DNA of 37,255 nucleotides from Bacteroidales bacterium (GTDB lineage Bacteria > Bacteroidota > Bacteroidia > Bacteroidales > CAIWKO01), in NCBI GenBank assembly GCA_035389045.1, contig DAOORA010000042.1, forward strand, positions 1 to 37,255, written 5' to 3'. Shown here in pieces: positions 15,001 through 21,000 of the stretch. Made by a program: the position numbers. Numbering within the stretch: position 1 is the first letter of the stretch; each line of letters starts with the position of its first letter.

Positions 15001-18000
15001 GTCCACTCCGAAAAGCCCCGTTTTTCTTATCCTGCGCCTGTATTAATTTGTTTTTTATCGGTTAGTCGTGATAATTCGAAAAGATTGTTTATTTTTACCA
15101 ATAATTAATGCGAAATGTGTGAAATAAATCACGCAATATGTACTAATTCTGTGATAAAATGGATATAGAAAGAGATGCCTTAAGAAATCTGATGCAGTGG
15201 AAAGAGAATAAATACCGTAAGCCACTGATGTTGCAGGGAGCACGTCAGGTAGGTAAAACATGGCTTTTAAAAGAATTTGGAAAAAGAGTTTTTGATAATG
15301 TTGCCTATTTTAATTTTGATACTCAACCCACAATAAAAGAGTTTTTCACAAAAACAAAAGAACCACATCAAATCATAAAATTTCTTTCATTTTTGAACCA
15401 TCAGCCAATAAAACCGAATGAAACACTTATCATTTTTGACGAAATTCAGGAATGTTATGACGCTCTTAATTCATTAAAATATTTTTGCGAAGACTCGCCT
15501 GAATATTTTGTAAGCTGTGCCGGCTCATTGCTGGGGGTAGCCATGAATAAAGGAGCCACATTTCCGGTTGGCAAAGTTGATTTCTTATATATCCATCCAT
15601 TAAGTTTTAATGAATATCTTTCTGCTGCTGATTCAAACCTGCTGGCTTTTCTTGAATCTGTAGACAAGGTTGAGGCCCTGCCCGAAATATTTTTTGATTC
15701 CTTGGTTAAACGGCTGAAAGAATATTTTATCACAGGCGGAATGCCTGATGCAGTTGTTTCCATTGCAGAAAAATCTGATGTATCTCTGACTCAAACAGTT
15801 TTGCAAAATATTTTGAATGCCTATGCCCTGGATTTTTCAAAACATGTAGCAAGCAAAGACATACAAAAAATTCATTACATATGGTCTTCCCTGCCTTCTC
15901 AGTTATCGAGGGAAAACAAAAAATTTTTATACCAGGCAGTTAAAAACGGGGCCAGGGCGAGAGAATACGAGGATGCCCTGCAATGGCTTATCAATGCAGG
16001 TTTGATCCATAAAATATATCGTTCTGCAAAACCCGCATTACCCATTTCGGCTTATGATGATTTATCCTGTTTTAAGATTTATATGATTGATGTAGGGATA
16101 CTCAGGCGCTTGTCGCAACTCGACCCGATTGCCATATCCGAAGGGAACAGGTTATTCATGGAGTTTAAAGGAGCTTTAACCGAAAATTTTGTGTTAAATT
16201 GCCTTATTCGACAGTTTGAAACCATCCCACGGTACTGGGCATCGGACAACAGGGCAGAACTTGATTTTCTGTTGCAATATCAAAACGAAATCATAGCTGT
16301 TGAAGTAAAATCAGACGAAAACATAAGAAGTAAAAGCATGGCTTTTTATCGCAAAGAATTTGCCCCGAAATTAGGCTTACGCTATTCGTTACGCAATCTT
16401 AAATACGATAATGGAGTTTTAAACATCCCTTTGTTTATGGCTGATTTTACCAAAAAACTTTTATGCTTATTATAAAAAAATGTTTTGATTTTTTTCCGAT
16501 TATATATTATTTATGGTCAGACTGAACCCCGGTGGGGCGCTAAACTATCGTAGTGATCACTCTTACCTGCCCGCCGCAAAAGGTTCTAAGTGACCTATAC
16601 TAACCAAATACTGCATATTGAAAATAAATTTTGTAAAATTCATAACAGTTTCTGATTAAATTTGTGTAGAAAAAGAACAGCAATGAAAAAACTGCTAATC
16701 GCTTTATTTTTATTAATCATCCTGGCAGCAAACTCATTTGCCCAGCATTTGGGTGGCGCTGCACCTTATGAATTTCAGGCAAAATACCACATGCTCGACT
16801 CTTCGGAGCTATGGTCTCCGCTTTTTGACAACAAATCCTTCACTCAAACCCCGCCTCCGGCAGGTAGCGTCCGCCCTGTTGCAGAATGGGAACCGGCACA
16901 GGCGGTGCTTGTCACTTATCCGGGACAATTCGGTATTCCTTATCCTCTGATTGCTGAAATGTCGCAGGACTGCAATGTAATTACTATTGTAGAATCATCA
17001 ACACAACGAACCACTGTTCGCAACAACTATGTAAGTTATGGAGTTGACACATCTCACTGCCGTTATATTATTGCTCCCCTTGATTCATACTGGTGCAGGG
17101 ATTATGGACCTTGGTTCGTCATGACAAACGACACTGCCGTCGGTATCCTTGATTTTAAGTACAACCGGACCAGCCGTCCAAATGATGATAATGTTCCTGT
17201 TGTCCTGGCAGGAGCATCATATCTTAATATGCCTTTATACGGGATGAATATGTATCACACAGGAGGTAACTATATGTGTGATGGTTATAAAGCCGCCGCC
17301 ATGACCGACCTGGTTGAAGATGAAAACACCTCCCTGACCCATGCTCAGATTGACACTGCTTTTAAACAATATATGGGCATCACCAACAACTACATCACCA
17401 CCGACCCGCTCGGCGATTATATTAAACACATAGACTGCTGGGGCAAATTCCTTGATGTGGACAAAATACTGATCGCATCGGTACCCACGAGCAATTCACA
17501 ATATTCCGACTATGAAGCCATGGCAACTTATTGGGCAAACCAGATTTCATCATACGGCAATAATTACCAGGTATACAGGGTTTACGAGCCTAATGGACAG
17601 CCATATACCAATTCCCTTATCCTTAACAATAAAGTATTCGTTCCATTTGTCCCAAACAATACCACAAATAATAATAATGCCCTTGCCGTGTATCAGCAAG
17701 CTATGCCCGGTTATGAAATTCTTGGATTTTCTTCCTCATCATGGCAATCAACCGATGCCCTGCACTGCCGCACTCACGAAATTGCCGATAAGGGAATGTT
17801 GTATATCAAGCATTATCCGCTGCTTGGCCAGAAACCCGTGCAGAGCCTTTACGCCATTAATGCTGAAATATACGCCCTGAGCGGTAGCAATATCATCGCC
17901 GATTCGGTGTACATAAAATACAGGGTTTTCCACAATTCATGGGGCGTATGGAACAAAATCCTAATGACCCATACCATGGGAAATTCCTGGACAGCTAGTA

Positions 18001-21000
18001 TTCCTCAACAGCAGAGCGGCGACACTATTGTCTATTACGTCCATGCTTCCGACCTGTCCCCGCGTAACGTTATGCACCCGTTAATCGGGCAACCCGATCC
18101 TCACAAATTCTATCTTTATGGCTCTTCAACAGCGGTTGCAGAAAATGGGAATGTCAAAGCCCTCGTCTTTCCAAACCCTGCCGTCGACTACTTGTTTATT
18201 CAAATGAAAAATGCCAGTAATTCAGCCATGTCTGTCCGAATATTTGATATGGTAGGCAAAGAAATAATGACCATAAATGAAAACAACCCACTCGATCATA
18301 TGATCAGGGTTGATGTAAGCAAATTCACTGCAGGCACATACTTCTTAAAAATTACCTGCGGAAGCTTATCAGAAACAAGGAAAATTAACTTGATACACTA
18401 ACTGACTGAAGTTTCGCATAAAAAATAAAATAGACAAATACCAATCATTTGTGGATTGCAAAGAGATTAACACTATGGGAGACAACTCTTTCACATATAG
18501 TCAAAAAGAACAAAACTTCGATCAGTCAGAGCAGTAATTATGCTACACATAAATAGAGCATATTATAACAATTGAAGGTTCGCATAAAAAAATAAAATTG
18601 ATAAATTCTTATAATTTGTGGATTACAAAGAGAATAACACTATAGAAAACAACTTTTTTACATATAGTCAAAAAGAACAAAACCACGGTCAGTCAGAGCA
18701 GATTCTCCTTTGTGCGCCTTAGTGCAAACACTTTGTGCGCCTTAGTGGTAAAAAAACTTAACCACGAAGTCGCACGAAGGAAATTCACAAAGGGACACGA
18801 AGGAAGAAATAAATTGAACATCAAGAAAATGGTTCGTATCAACCCTCATTGCCGCGCTGTGTCCGGCTGCGTGACATAAAAAAATCATGCGAAACTTTAG
18901 TAACTGAATAACTCCAGTGCAACCCGCTAAGTACAGGTTAGCACATCAATTCGAATGATGCGGACAAGGCATGCCCCCTTCTTTTTTTATGCATTTCTTT
19001 TCGATCACCATCTTCATGCAGGTTGAATCGCCAGTTGTCGTGCTGTCGCCGGGACAACAATGCCTGAACATACCAAAATCCGGCATATCGGCGCATTTTT
19101 TCATCATCAGACGTTCGTTATCATGAAATCTTTTCGATTGAAGAGCCCTGTCCCCGATGTAGTATGCGCCCAAAACACCAAGAATAAGTACAATGCAGAT
19201 AAAAAAAGTTCCCAGCCAGATCTTTTTGTTACTTCTATCAACAAAACCTTTAATAATTGTTATAAGACCTACAAAACCTAAAACAACAGCAATCATGCTG
19301 AAAATCAAAAATAAAATTTTCATGGGTTTCAGTTTAAGTTTATAATTTTTACCACAAAAATAAGCAAATCAAACAAAAAAGTCAATGATTATCAAAAAAT
19401 TAGAATTCAAATCAGTAGCACCCACCCTGTTCCCTGAAGAAAAAAGTCAACAACACAAAACTTATTTTAACGGTATGATGTAAATCGCAACATCCCCTCA
19501 ACACCTGAATTGTCAAAGTTTTATACTTTTCCATTCGTTTTTTTTCTTGTCCGTTTTTTTACACAAAAGTCTGACCATCCGGTTTTTGACATCAATGATC
19601 CCTCCCCAGCTGAATAAAAATTTTATTCGTTTTTTGACGTAATTCCAAATCACTTTTTTTGATTCAAGTAAATGATAAACAGAAGGAACCAATTCAAGAG
19701 GGATATAAAGAGGAATTTTCTTGTTCAGAATAAAATATCTGAAAGCATCGTGGCACAACTGGATCTGCTCTTTTGAAAACTCAGGAAAACTAATCGTTGC
19801 TTCCACTCTTTCCTGATAATACTGTTTATCAGGCATCCAGTTGTTTTTCCTGCAAATATCACCCAGTTCAGTGCCGGGATAGGGATGAAAAATGGAAATT
19901 TCAGCCACTCCTGATGCCTGCCGGCTCAGGCGCACCGTATCAAAGAACAATTCTTTATTCTCATAGGGCAGCCCCACCATAACAAAAAAATCATCACAAA
20001 TAACATCATATTTGTCACACAATCTGAATGTATCCACAATCTGCTTATTTGTCATATTTCTTTTCAGAATTTTTTTTCTAAATTCCTCGTTACCATGTTC
20101 AATCCCGACCAGAATTCTTGATACACCCGACTCTTTTAATACTTTCATCATAGCTTCATCAACAGTACCGACCCTGATATTGCATTTAAAAGGGATATCG
20201 ATTTTTTCCCTGTACAATGCGAAGAATTCATAAAACCAGGTCTTGTTCAACGTGATGCAGTCATCATCAAAAATAATATAGCTGAATTTATATTTTTCAG
20301 AGGCTACTTCGATTTCTTTTATGGCTTTCGCCGGGCTGCGCAACCTGAAATATCTTTTTGAATTGGTACTTATTTCTGATAATGCTTTATTGGAACAATA
20401 GGTACACTCAAAAGGGCACCCCCGGCTGAAAATAAACCTCATTGAATTCCCGTTATTTATAATCTCTCTCTGCAGATTCAGTGCGTCAATATCGGGAAAC
20501 GGCAGAACATCCAGATTTTCAATAAGAGGCCTGGTTTCATTTCTAATGACTCTGTCGGCGGCATGAAACCAGCAGTTTTTAATATTGAAATAATCCTGTT
20601 TATGATCCAATGCCTGCACCAATTCCAGCAATGGATATTCCCCTTCTCCTCTGATGACACAGTTAACACCATCAATTTCAAGTATACTTTCCGGGTCTAA
20701 GGTAGGATGAACCCCGCCGCAAACAATAAAACTCCCGGCAGTTTCCTTATCGCTATTGATCTCATTGATCAATGATTTAAGATAATTGACCTGGGATGTT
20801 GTAATTGAAAAAGCTATGATGTCCGGTTTGTCCTTTTTAAGACCGGAAATAAATTCCATCCAGTCGTAATGATGCCTGATCAGGGTATGAACCGGCTGAT
20901 AGCCCGACTGTTTGAGAACAGCGGAAATATATGCCAATCCGTAACTATAACTAAAACCCTGGTTGGTATTATATACCATGTAAACAAGATTGATTTTCAT

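Follow-up and report, generated by a model that had tools for sequence, protein, structure and literature searches.

The peptidylarginine deiminase of Porphyromonas gingivalis (PPAD) has been studied almost solely as a virulence factor connecting rheumatoid arthritis with gum disease. In reviews up to 2026 it is described as unique to P. gingivalis and two relatives from animal mouths, and according to PMC6367333 it is not clear what the enzyme does for its producer. A gene in the 37,255-nt stretch of DNA analysed here (the window) raises the question of whether an enzyme of this kind is also made by a free-living sludge bacterium, as opposed to the Porphyromonas of animal mouths, and what it would do there.

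Gene and domain organisation

As the first-pass annotation had claimed, positions 16683..18401 of the forward strand (stop codon included) are open and translate into 572 aa. Stop codons run throughout the opposite strand. Translation together with domain and PDB matches identified the product as a PPAD-type deiminase (P0001, hereafter the deiminase). A putative Bacteroidota-type promoter was read by eye on the same strand at 16630..16664, with TTTG at 16630-16633 and TAAATTTG at 16657-16664, the latter ending 19 nt 5' of the ATG. The consensus behind it is one that we take to be TTTG ... TAnnTTTG. A sigma-70 scan, which does not cover Bacteroidota-type promoters, gave no match upstream of the gene.

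The order of parts is alike in PPAD and the deiminase, namely a signal peptide, a short N-terminal segment with a basic end, a catalytic domain of the five-bladed guanidino-modifying type, an Ig-like domain and a type A C-terminal domain (CTD) of a type IX secretion system (T9SS). All features below lie on the forward strand. The signal peptide (aa 1-20, 16683..16742) was read from the sequence, and its predicted cleavage between SFA and Q would expose Gln21 (16743). Of 53 aligned relatives of ~570 aa, 50 share this residue, and a glutamine following signal-peptide cleavage is the Bacteroidetes Q-rule according to the accessible text of PMC5837995 and PMC10653852. Residues 21-51 (16743..16835) form a linker or pro-segment, modelled at pLDDT 43-57, that ends in Lys51. 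In the PPAD alignment Lys51 falls on Arg43, the residue preceding the mature PPAD N-terminus Ala44; the mature fragment is given as A44-A475 in the excerpted text of PMC4487231. The two segments are unrelated in sequence except for this basic end residue, and 42 of the 53 relatives have K or R at position 51. The deiminase may likewise be processed at Lys51.

The catalytic domain spans approximately aa 53-370 (16839..17792), as delimited by the PDB match, the PPAD alignment and residue conservation. It is followed by an Ig-like β-sandwich domain at approximately aa 371-481 (17793..18125), placed by an alignment to PPAD chains that runs through residue 481, by the structural model and by Foldseek. 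The type A sorting domain occupies aa 492-572 (18156..18398), with a modelled β-sandwich at 492-570. The domain matches named earlier were all recovered well above their cut-offs: PAD_porph (PF04371) at 66-366 with 96.5 bits against 25, Por_Secre_tail (PF18962) at 495-568 with 53 bits against 27, and the NCBIfam type A sorting domain (TIGR04183) with 42.4 bits against 23. With a Sec signal peptide by sequence reading and a sorting domain above curated cut-offs, the deiminase is predicted to be a type A T9SS cargo.

Sequence and structural similarity to PPAD

The top phmmer matches in the PDB were the PPAD chains 4YT9 and 4YTB (E 2.5e-119, 402.6 bits, query residues 53-481), in agreement with the earlier note. 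The other PPAD entries compared, 5AK7, 4YTG, 6I0X and 5AK8, also matched, and the first non-PPAD structure was 1xkn at 9.2e-12 and 47.4 bits. On the same chains the PPAD reference itself (L139:732-2399) scores 1013-1026 bits. BLASTP against this full-length reference gave 239/575 identities (E 3e-139), which bears out the 42% identity reported before, and the deiminase core is 46-49% identical to PPAD. An AlphaFold model of the deiminase had a mean pLDDT of 89.4, and the β strands of the Ig-like domain (373-479) reached 93-98. Foldseek superposed the model on 4ytb with a TM-score of 0.96 and an rmsd of 1.6 Å over 433 columns, covering both the catalytic and the Ig-like domain, a closeness that is partly expected because PPAD structures were in the AlphaFold training set.

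The active site and carboxylate clamp are conserved

The four active-site blocks listed in the first-pass annotation (YW-RDY, H-I-DCWGK, PYTNSLILNN and TDALHCRTHE) were each found in the deiminase. The catalytic pentad is present as D140 (PPAD D130), H249 (H236), D251 (D238), N310 (N297) and C362 (C351), and the clamp and pocket residues as R162 (R152), R165 (R154), Y246 (Y233) and W137 (W127); the roles of the PPAD residues come from mutagenesis and crystal structures, as described in the available portions of PMC4893104 and PMC4487231. All nine are conserved in the deiminase and in 15/15 full-length copies from its bacterial family. Among 262 relatives, H236, D238, N297 and C351 are invariant (262/262), D130, R152 and R154 are each kept in 261, and Y233 in 251. 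The clamp for the free carboxylate at the substrate's C-terminus (R152, R154 and Y233; W127 lines the pocket) thus appears to be kept in the deiminase. Its spacing differs, with two residues between the arginines (R-T-S-R) where PPAD has one (R-P-R). The longer spacing occurs in 126/400 relatives, and both spacings are found inside one genus; the clamp block 161-170 is modelled less confidently (pLDDT 85). Catalytic pentad, carboxylate clamp, Ig-like domain and T9SS CTD together support a complete PPAD-type enzyme.

Source databases mostly label the relatives 'agmatine deiminase family protein', which raises the alternative of an extracellular agmatine deiminase converting agmatine to N-carbamoylputrescine. 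PF04371 includes the deiminase and true agmatine deiminases alike, and the known agmatine deiminases (1XKN, 2JER, 3HVM, 6B10, 6NIB) share its propeller fold and Cys-His-Asp-Asp-Asn chemistry. The genome moreover has no second PF04371 gene (one match in the whole genome, as previously noted), a search for TIGR03380-type genes at E<=1e-40 found none in it, and among 31 genomes of the carrier's order agmatine deiminase (AgDI)-type genes occur in 9, PPAD-type genes in 7 and both in 0. However, the deiminase scores only 31.3 bits on TIGR03380 (cut-off 381.8) and 32.1 bits on PRK13551 (cut-off 483), which places it below the curated cut-offs of the agmatine deiminase class (AguA), and its 402.6 bits against PPAD compare with at most 47.4 bits against agmatine deiminase family structures. 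These structures align with the catalytic domain of the model only, at 17-20% structural identity and TM-scores of 0.71-0.81 (0.79 for 1xkn, the best match in this family, which carries the title putative peptidyl-arginine deiminase), and agmatine deiminases have no R-x-R clamp, Tyr233 loop, Ig-like domain, signal peptide or CTD. The negative control was a set of four agmatine deiminases from the carrier's order. They retain the catalytic residues but not the clamp: NGWGxKF replaces N-R-P-R-P and DDTDGHID replaces the Tyr233 loop. The two arginines and the tyrosine would bind a carboxylate, which agmatine does not have. Finally, the deiminase is a predicted T9SS cargo with an additional Ig-like domain, whereas the AgDI matches are frames of ~350 aa. 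An agmatine deiminase is therefore very improbable, and the database label is probably wrong for the PPAD-type subfamily.

Human-type PADs, which target internal arginines, and their bacterial relatives (PF03068, e.g. the Streptomyces citrulassin PAD) resemble the PPAD type in converting peptidyl-arginine to citrulline. They form a separate Pfam family, and the Pfam scan gave no PF03068 match for the deiminase. Human-type PADs also belong to the guanidino-modifying superfamily (10.1101/2020.07.16.207027 and PMC4487231); mammalian PADs require calcium and neutral pH, and PPAD is specific for C-terminal arginines (PMC13539308).

PPAD is one branch of a large environmental family

The gene had been presented as a full-length PPAD orthologue. 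Full length and type hold, but strict orthology does not. In our tree the deiminase falls in its own well-supported clade (100/99), and PPAD pairs with P0173 (100/100). An AU test rejected a tree in which the two are joined (62.7 lnL lost, p-AU 0.025), a value to be taken as caution and not proof since the tested group was named after the tree had been seen; the branching order along the backbone that links the clades is poorly resolved, and the tree was rooted only with a more distantly related subgroup. By core identity to PPAD the deiminase ranks 96th of 399 relatives. The nearest, at 55-56%, are P0173, P0180 and a Lentimicrobium record (L123). PPAD thus appears as one twig of an enzyme family in which Lentimicrobium-type sequences stand nearer to it than the deiminase does, and one-to-one orthology with Porphyromonas PPAD is not indicated by these sequence comparisons.

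The same data bear on a recent horizontal transfer from or to the Porphyromonas lineage, in which the deiminase would be a true one-to-one PPAD orthologue with a host-directed role. The identical four-part architecture and the 42% full-length identity speak for it, and the presence of PPAD in only three Porphyromonas species (PMC10394638) allows for a transfer somewhere in the family. This scenario is nevertheless the least probable of those considered: the clades are separate, 95 of the 399 relatives are nearer to PPAD in the core than the deiminase is, and the records of relatives, by title, and the RNA contigs point to sludge, digester, sediment, activated sludge and similar sources and to no animal host.

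The implied rarity of the gene was contradicted. At E<=1e-30 the PPAD-type family comprises 573 clusters at 50% identity, with relatives in at least 597 species genomes and matches in 151/401 sampled genomes of the carrier's order; others stand under the record titles Cloacimonadota, Chlorobiota and Aquimarina. Within the carrier's bacterial family the earlier counts stood. Matches occurred in 19 of 23 genomes including the carrier's own (G000), with 15 full-length copies at 59-74% identity, contig-end fragments in G014 and G005 and a 36% relative in G021; among the 23 genomes searched, G006, G013, G016 and G022 (completeness 87, 82, 96 and 96%) gave no PPAD-type match. Three activated-sludge metatranscriptome runs also contained, as claimed, short contigs at least 99% identical to parts of the gene, at a depth of 2-5, which indicates presence in RNA libraries and not transcription. 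Within this huge environmental family the deiminase gene is typical and unremarkable. For the gene alone the result is modest: since it is separate from the PPAD clade and so many relatives exist, what is new concerns the family and its connection with gingipains rather than the deiminase gene or its bacterial family.

PPAD-type genes co-occur with RgpB-like gingipains

Like P. gingivalis, the carrier's genome has an RgpB-like gingipain and PorU. Two PorU homologues (478.6 and 462.3 bits to 6za2) suggest that the T9SS machinery is present. Contig C38 of the same genome encodes a 1242-aa protein made up of a C25 propeptide, C25 catalytic and C25 Ig-like domains, PKD repeats and a T9SS CTD. Its match to gingipain R (1cvr) reaches 314 bits, that to Kgp 46 bits. 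The protein retains H211 and C244 as well as the S1 residues D163, T209, G210, G212, V242, Q282, W284 and M288 (residue roles from PMC9559808), differing in a Gln at the position of RgpB Glu152, and its Arg pocket is predicted to be intact.

We then compared 146 genomes, one for each family of the carrier's order. Both genes were found in 53, a PPAD-type gene alone in 1, an Rgp-like gene alone in 15 and neither in 77, so that 53 of the 54 genomes with a PPAD-type gene also have an RgpB-like gingipain. PorU was found in 135/146 of these genomes, and T9SS presence therefore does not explain the link. A control protease, M64, was present in 47/54 PPAD-type-positive and 59/92 negative genomes. As the genomes are related and not independent, Fisher p-values overstate the link, and the two genes may simply mark proteolytic lineages. 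In 8 of 103 PPAD-type loci examined, the ORF directly upstream, on the same strand, belongs to the Peptidase_C25 family. Of these eight ORFs, that of L077 matches gingipain R2 at 380.7 bits, and those of L129 and L133 gave no phmmer match to the RgpB-like domain. The deiminase gene itself stands alone, with no protease gene adjoining it in the window, and no conserved operon was seen at the PPAD-type loci of its bacterial family. The literature searched gave no description of this; the co-occurrence, the C25 adjacency and the genome's own RgpB-like gene with PorU are new.

Proposed function

We consider it probable, at roughly 80%, that the gene encodes a secreted PPAD-type exo-deiminase acting on C-terminal arginines via a proposed T9SS route; extracellular deimination of such arginines is its likely function. 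The deiminase would be exported by Sec, with the signal peptide cut ahead of Gln21, and taken across the outer membrane through the T9SS by its sorting domain. PorU probably cuts off this domain and anchors the enzyme to the cell surface or vesicles. Outside the cell it would bind Arg-ended peptides, with Arg162, Arg165 and Tyr246 gripping the free C-terminal carboxylate and Asp140 and Asp251 holding the guanidinium group, which Cys362 would hydrolyse with His249 and Asn310 to give a C-terminal citrulline and ammonia. The C-terminal arginines would most likely be supplied by the RgpB-like, T9SS-secreted gingipain cutting after arginine, and the pair would amount to host-independent processing of extracellular peptides. 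The benefit may be ammonia release, or an altered charge and fate of the peptides.

Free L-arginine or small Arg-ended compounds could instead be the substrates of a PPAD-fold enzyme that scavenges nitrogen or ammonia independently of any protease, for example from the β-Asp-Arg dipeptide of cyanophycin. What the clamp reads is a carboxylate beside the side chain of an arginine, a feature also of free arginine and of dipeptides. In one lineage (L038, L044, L047, L070) the PPAD-type gene has a neighbour of the Peptidase_S51 family, which includes cyanophycinase and dipeptidase E, and the lone position of the deiminase gene in the window is also in keeping with a protease-independent role. PPAD crystals contained dipeptides (PMC4487231), which likewise favours this reading. 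Against it, the authors of that paper credit an arginine with the preference of PPAD for peptidyl-arginine over free arginine. That arginine is conserved in the deiminase, and the tight co-occurrence with Rgp-like genes and the C25 proteases adjoining PPAD-type genes elsewhere likewise speak against free arginine or small compounds, which we regard as unlikely, if less so than the agmatine reading.

For exo-deimination coupled to a gingipain, a wider possibility, put forward tentatively at somewhat short of even odds, is that arginine-gingipain and PPAD make up a two-enzyme module, old, widespread and independent of a host, in proteolytic Bacteroidales of the environment and are not a Porphyromonas invention. 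A secreted protease would cut after arginine and a secreted deiminase would turn the new C-terminal arginine into citrulline and ammonia, in some Cloacimonadota-titled records as well and sometimes from adjoining genes. P. gingivalis would then have inherited or borrowed the module, and sludge, digesters and sediments would produce C-terminally citrullinated peptides at scale. Enzymes that share with PPAD the active site, the clamp, the Ig-like domain and the secretion signal are present in hundreds of free-living species, nearly always with an RgpB-like gene, which argues for a basic role independent of a host. Record titles with a PPAD-type gene include the named isolates Ancylomarina sp. 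DW003 and Aquimarina sp. 2201CG1-2-11, organisms in which such a role could be tested.

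A PPAD-type deiminase with a conserved active site

The open frame at 16683-18401 on the forward strand encodes a 572-aa protein, P0001, and the opposite strand is filled with stop codons, confirming the frame of the first-pass annotation. Its domain assignments also held: Pfam matched PAD_porph (PF04371) to residues 66-366 with 96.5 bits (cut-off 25) and Por_Secre_tail to residues 495-568 with 53 bits (cut-off 27), and NCBIfam matched a T9SS type A sorting domain. The NCBIfam agmatine deiminase models scored 31-32 bits on P0001, against cut-offs of 381.8 and 483. As had been claimed, the best matches in the PDB were the structures of the P. 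gingivalis peptidylarginine deiminase (PPAD), with 396-403 bits over residues 53-481 (57-494 for 5ak7 and 5ak8), followed by chain 1xkn at 47.4 bits. An AlphaFold model of P0001, built with 53 relatives as input, had a mean pLDDT of 89.4 and superposed on the PPAD structure 4ytb with a TM score of 0.96 and an rmsd of 1.6 A, the 433 aligned columns taking in the catalytic domain as well as the Ig-like domain. This agreement is partly expected because the PDB entries used to train AlphaFold include PPAD. The TM score was 0.79 for 1xkn, which is titled a putative peptidyl-arginine deiminase and was the best chain of the agmatine deiminase family.

To compare residues, a reference PPAD gene was located with a degenerate DNA pattern at positions 732-2399 of locus L139. 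Its 556-aa product scored 1013-1026 bits against the PPAD chains of the PDB, and its residues 44-475 are residues 1-432 of the 4yt9 chain, which fixed the numbering. A stored candidate of 558 aa, P0207, was rejected as it turned out not to be PPAD. P0001 and PPAD are identical at 239 of 575 positions (42%) from the signal peptide through the sorting domain. In the active-site descriptions of PMC4893104 and PMC4487231, PPAD catalysis depends on D130, H236, D238, N297 and C351, while R152, R154 and Y233 hold the substrate's free C-terminal carboxylate, R154 also binds the preceding peptide carbonyl and W127 lines the pocket. All nine have equivalents in P0001 (D140, H249, D251, N310, C362, R162, R165, Y246 and W137), bearing out the claim that the active site is kept. 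The sole difference among these residues is that P0001 has R-T-S-R where PPAD has R-P-R. The nine residues are kept in 15/15 full-length copies from the family CAIWKO01, and the gap between the two clamp arginines is one or two residues, varying within the genus.

Four agmatine deiminases from genomes of the same order were aligned with the PPAD-type proteins as a control. They share the catalytic residues, but have NGWGxKF in place of the PPAD-type N-R-P-R-P and DDTDGHID in place of the Tyr233 loop. The carboxylate clamp therefore separates PPAD-type proteins from agmatine deiminases. Among 262 relatives spanning the core, each catalytic residue was kept in 261-262, R152 and R154 each in 261, and Y233 in 251. 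P0001 is very probably an active, secreted, PPAD-type deiminase of C-terminal arginine. In 31 related genomes of the order (G000, the source of this contig, and G023-G052), a small sample given as raw counts, AgDI-type genes were found in 9, PPAD-type genes in 7, both in none and neither in 15.

PPAD is one twig of an environmental radiation

G000 was said to hold a single PF04371 gene, and a second copy is indeed absent. The reported distribution within CAIWKO01 was also reproduced, with a match in 19 of 23 genomes including G000: 15 full-length copies of 59-74% identity, fragments at contig ends in 2 genomes and a 36% relative in 1. The 4 genomes with no match are 82-96% complete.

A word-indexed protein search with P0001 scored 8000 proteins, of which 5003 reached E<=1e-20, and the best 120 of these 5003 had at least 501 bits each, above the score of PPAD itself against the query. 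An exhaustive search of representatives of 50%-identity clusters matched 3816 clusters at E<=1e-3, of which 1592 reached E<=1e-10 and 573 reached E<=1e-30. The best 150 representatives all scored at least 356 bits and ranged from 423 to 2395 aa, and the catalytic and Ig-like domains were covered in most. Contigs from one genome per species contained at least 604 stretches with two family motifs, of which at least 597 encode a relative; 80 of these relatives were retained. Among the matches listed, the titles name Bacteroidales, Lentimicrobium, Marinilabiliales, Cloacimonadota and Chlorobiota, and the named isolates are Ancylomarina sp. DW003 and Aquimarina sp. 2201CG1-2-11. In a sample across the order, 151 of 401 genomes and 90 of 236 genera had a match at E<=1e-40, in a strong tier (at least 336 bits, 39-74% identity) and a weaker one (170-237 bits, 30-38% identity). 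A phylum-wide sample gave matches in 17 of 301 genomes, but consists almost wholly of complete genomes and is no fair gauge of uncultured lineages; outside the order, a single family (4/4 genomes) reached E 1.9e-90 to 1.7e-102, level with the strong tier or close to it. Source databases label these proteins 'agmatine deiminase family protein'. The P0001 gene is an ordinary addition to a known kind of enzyme, probably mislabelled in databases. Two loci carry two such genes: L079 has them in tandem (13-2871, a 953-aa form with a CTD, then 3001-4560, a 564-aa form), and in L074 a second frame lies directly downstream of the first and in the same frame.

Trees were built with FastTree on 311 core sequences and with IQ-TREE on 66, and were rooted on the 30-38% identical subgroup, 'tier 2', in which both clamp arginines are kept and the alignment of the Tyr233 loop is ambiguous; agmatine deiminases served as the residue control only. 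P0001 belongs to a clade (support 100/99) that unites its own family with members of two further families of the order, and the sister of PPAD is P0173, a protein 56-57% identical to it (support 100/100). The quick tree nested PPAD in starred clades alongside Lentimicrobium and Ancylomarina sequences; after the full search, the stars were gone from the intermediate branches around PPAD, so that its exact nearest environmental relatives are not fixed. Forcing the query clade to group with the PPAD pair cost 62.7 log-likelihood units (p-AU 0.025, for a group chosen after viewing the tree). In core identity to PPAD, P0001 (48.8%) ranks 96th of 399, the nearest sequences reaching 55-56%. The earlier description of a full-length orthologue of PPAD therefore stands in that P0001 fits well in the PPAD family, but given the separate clades, the AU result and the identity rank, orthology in the narrow sense does not. 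A 2023 study reports PPAD from just three Porphyromonas species (PMC10394638). PPAD is itself one twig within an environmental radiation.

PPAD-type genes co-occur with RgpB-like proteases

Nine proteins of G000 match PF01364. The two best are tandem homologues of PorU, the sortase of the T9SS (L026 and L027, contig C13:24627-31803), which are 39% identical to each other and score 478.6 and 462.3 bits to 6za2. Tandem PorU pairs also occur elsewhere in the order, for example in G072, G091, G104 and G143. Contig C38 of G000 encodes an RgpB-like protein of 1242 aa with a C25 propeptide, catalytic domain, C25 Ig-like domain, PKD repeats and T9SS CTD. Its scores were 314 bits with gingipain R (1cvr), 118 bits with the RgpB pro-domain and 46 bits with Kgp. 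Going by the residue roles described in PMC9559808, it retains both catalytic residues, H211 and C244, together with the arginine-pocket residues D163, T209, G210, G212, V242, Q282, W284 and M288, and has Gln where RgpB has E152.

Co-occurrence was counted in 146 genomes (G023-G168), one per family of the order. Both PPAD-type and RgpB-like genes were present in 53 genomes, PPAD-type alone in 1 (G070), Rgp-like alone in 15 and neither in 77. PorU was found in 135 of the 146, including 54/54 PPAD-positive genomes, so the presence of the T9SS does not explain the link. The control protease M64 was found in 47 of 54 PPAD-positive and 59 of 92 PPAD-negative genomes; the link of PPAD-type genes to Rgp-like proteases is therefore far tighter than that to M64, although Fisher p-values for it are too strong because the genomes are related. 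The supposedly 'unique' PPAD and its arginine-gingipain partner look like a common environmental pair, and this family-level pairing is more interesting than the single gene.

Full-text literature outside subscription journals and supplements yielded no description of an environmental PPAD-type subfamily or of its gingipain link. A centipede-venom study takes all of PF04371 as 'bacterial PAD', not separating PPAD-type proteins from agmatine deiminases; the subject of a citrulassin preprint is the other PAD family, PF03068; and deiminases go unmentioned in a T9SS cargo survey of 2024.

Potential route of P0001 to the surface

The N-terminus of P0001 (MKKLLIALFLLIILAANSFA followed by Gln) would fit a Sec signal cut before Gln, and 50 of 53 relatives in the alignment share this Gln21; a Q-rule for Bacteroidetes is described in the abstracts of PMC5837995 and PMC10653852. 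The ~30 residues after this cleavage site have low confidence in the AlphaFold model and run up to Lys51. This Lys aligns with PPAD Arg43, the last residue before the mature N-terminus, and 42 of 53 relatives have K or R here, so that a protease specific for Lys or Arg could trim the protein at this site. As in PPAD, the CTD and PorU may lead to export by the T9SS and attachment to the surface or to vesicles. There, the active site would be expected to hydrolyse the guanidinium of C-terminal arginines to give citrulline and ammonia, the arginines being potentially supplied by the RgpB-like protease. The cell could benefit from ammonia release, from removal of positive charge on peptides or from shielding peptides against carboxypeptidases of other organisms.

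Gene surroundings

The deiminase gene stands alone in the window. Upstream lies an AAA_14/DUF4143 ATPase gene; downstream are a convergent 125-aa ORF with no Pfam match (18946-19323, reverse strand) and a B12-binding radical SAM gene (reverse strand). The window also holds an M64 (IgA-peptidase family) peptidase gene (21165-22433, forward strand) and an Endonuclease I gene whose product carries a T9SS sorting domain (7489-8577, reverse strand). ORFs with no Pfam match and of a size and position like that at 18946-19323 follow the gene in the family loci L003, L005, L014 and L017.

For 103 distinct loci, the closest flanking ORFs (170 in all) were surveyed, and the family loci had neither a conserved operon nor a conserved Pfam-bearing neighbour. 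In 8 of these loci (L077, L080, L094, L101, L111, L126, L129 and L133), the ORF directly upstream, on the same strand, belongs to the Peptidase_C25 family; the eight represent at least 3 lineages, one titled Cloacimonadota. Only the C25 Ig-like domain was seen in L080 and L129 because the locus start cuts these ORFs. The L077 neighbour reached 380.7 bits with gingipain R2 and 68.3 with Kgp, and keeps H211, C244, D163 and E152. Its domain was matched by the C25 ORFs of L101, L126, L111, L094 and L080, and not by those of L129 and L133. Other neighbours in the 103 loci are lineage-specific, such as S51 peptidases and ATG22-type transporters (4 loci each) and SLT-LysM proteins, and T9SS cargo genes of many kinds are frequent. 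The Peptidase_S51 genes flank the PPAD-type gene in one lineage (L038, L044, L047 and L070). Members of this family include cyanophycinase and dipeptidase E, and the product of cyanophycinase is beta-Asp-Arg, a dipeptide with a terminal arginine.

RNA contigs, regulatory signals and repeats

Near-identical contigs had been noted in activated-sludge metatranscriptomes, and three runs from three studies did contain contigs that match parts of the gene at 99% identity or more. These cover 17696-17899, 17979-18261 and 18267-18563 (150-310 nt, depth 2-5), and 16503-17671 had no cover in any of the three runs. They show that the organism or a very close strain is in the libraries and are not proof of transcription. 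A sigma-70 scan around the gene yielded nothing usable: its 11 promoter-like sites, compared to 6.5 expected, all lie within the ORF or past its end. A terminator scan found none after the stop codon. No RNA gene was detected in 16300-19600 by Rfam (E<=0.1) or ARAGORN; the 207-nt spacer upstream of the gene contains a G+C-richer stretch (~16514-16595) with no tRNA or Rfam match.

Just past the stop codon, at 18407-18701, are two direct repeats of ~115-130 nt, 86% identical and 167 nt apart. A dispersed repeat with no Rfam match follows at 18690-18900. It has 35 matches in the genome, including five near-full copies on contigs C4, C80, C76, C22 and C34 (95-98% identical over ~206-222 nt) and tandem arrays on C25, C78 and C65, and accounts for RNA contigs of depth 30-37 that run into unrelated sequence past 18899. 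RNA contigs at depth 8-13 cover 18870-19349, spanning the reverse-strand ORF at 18946-19323.
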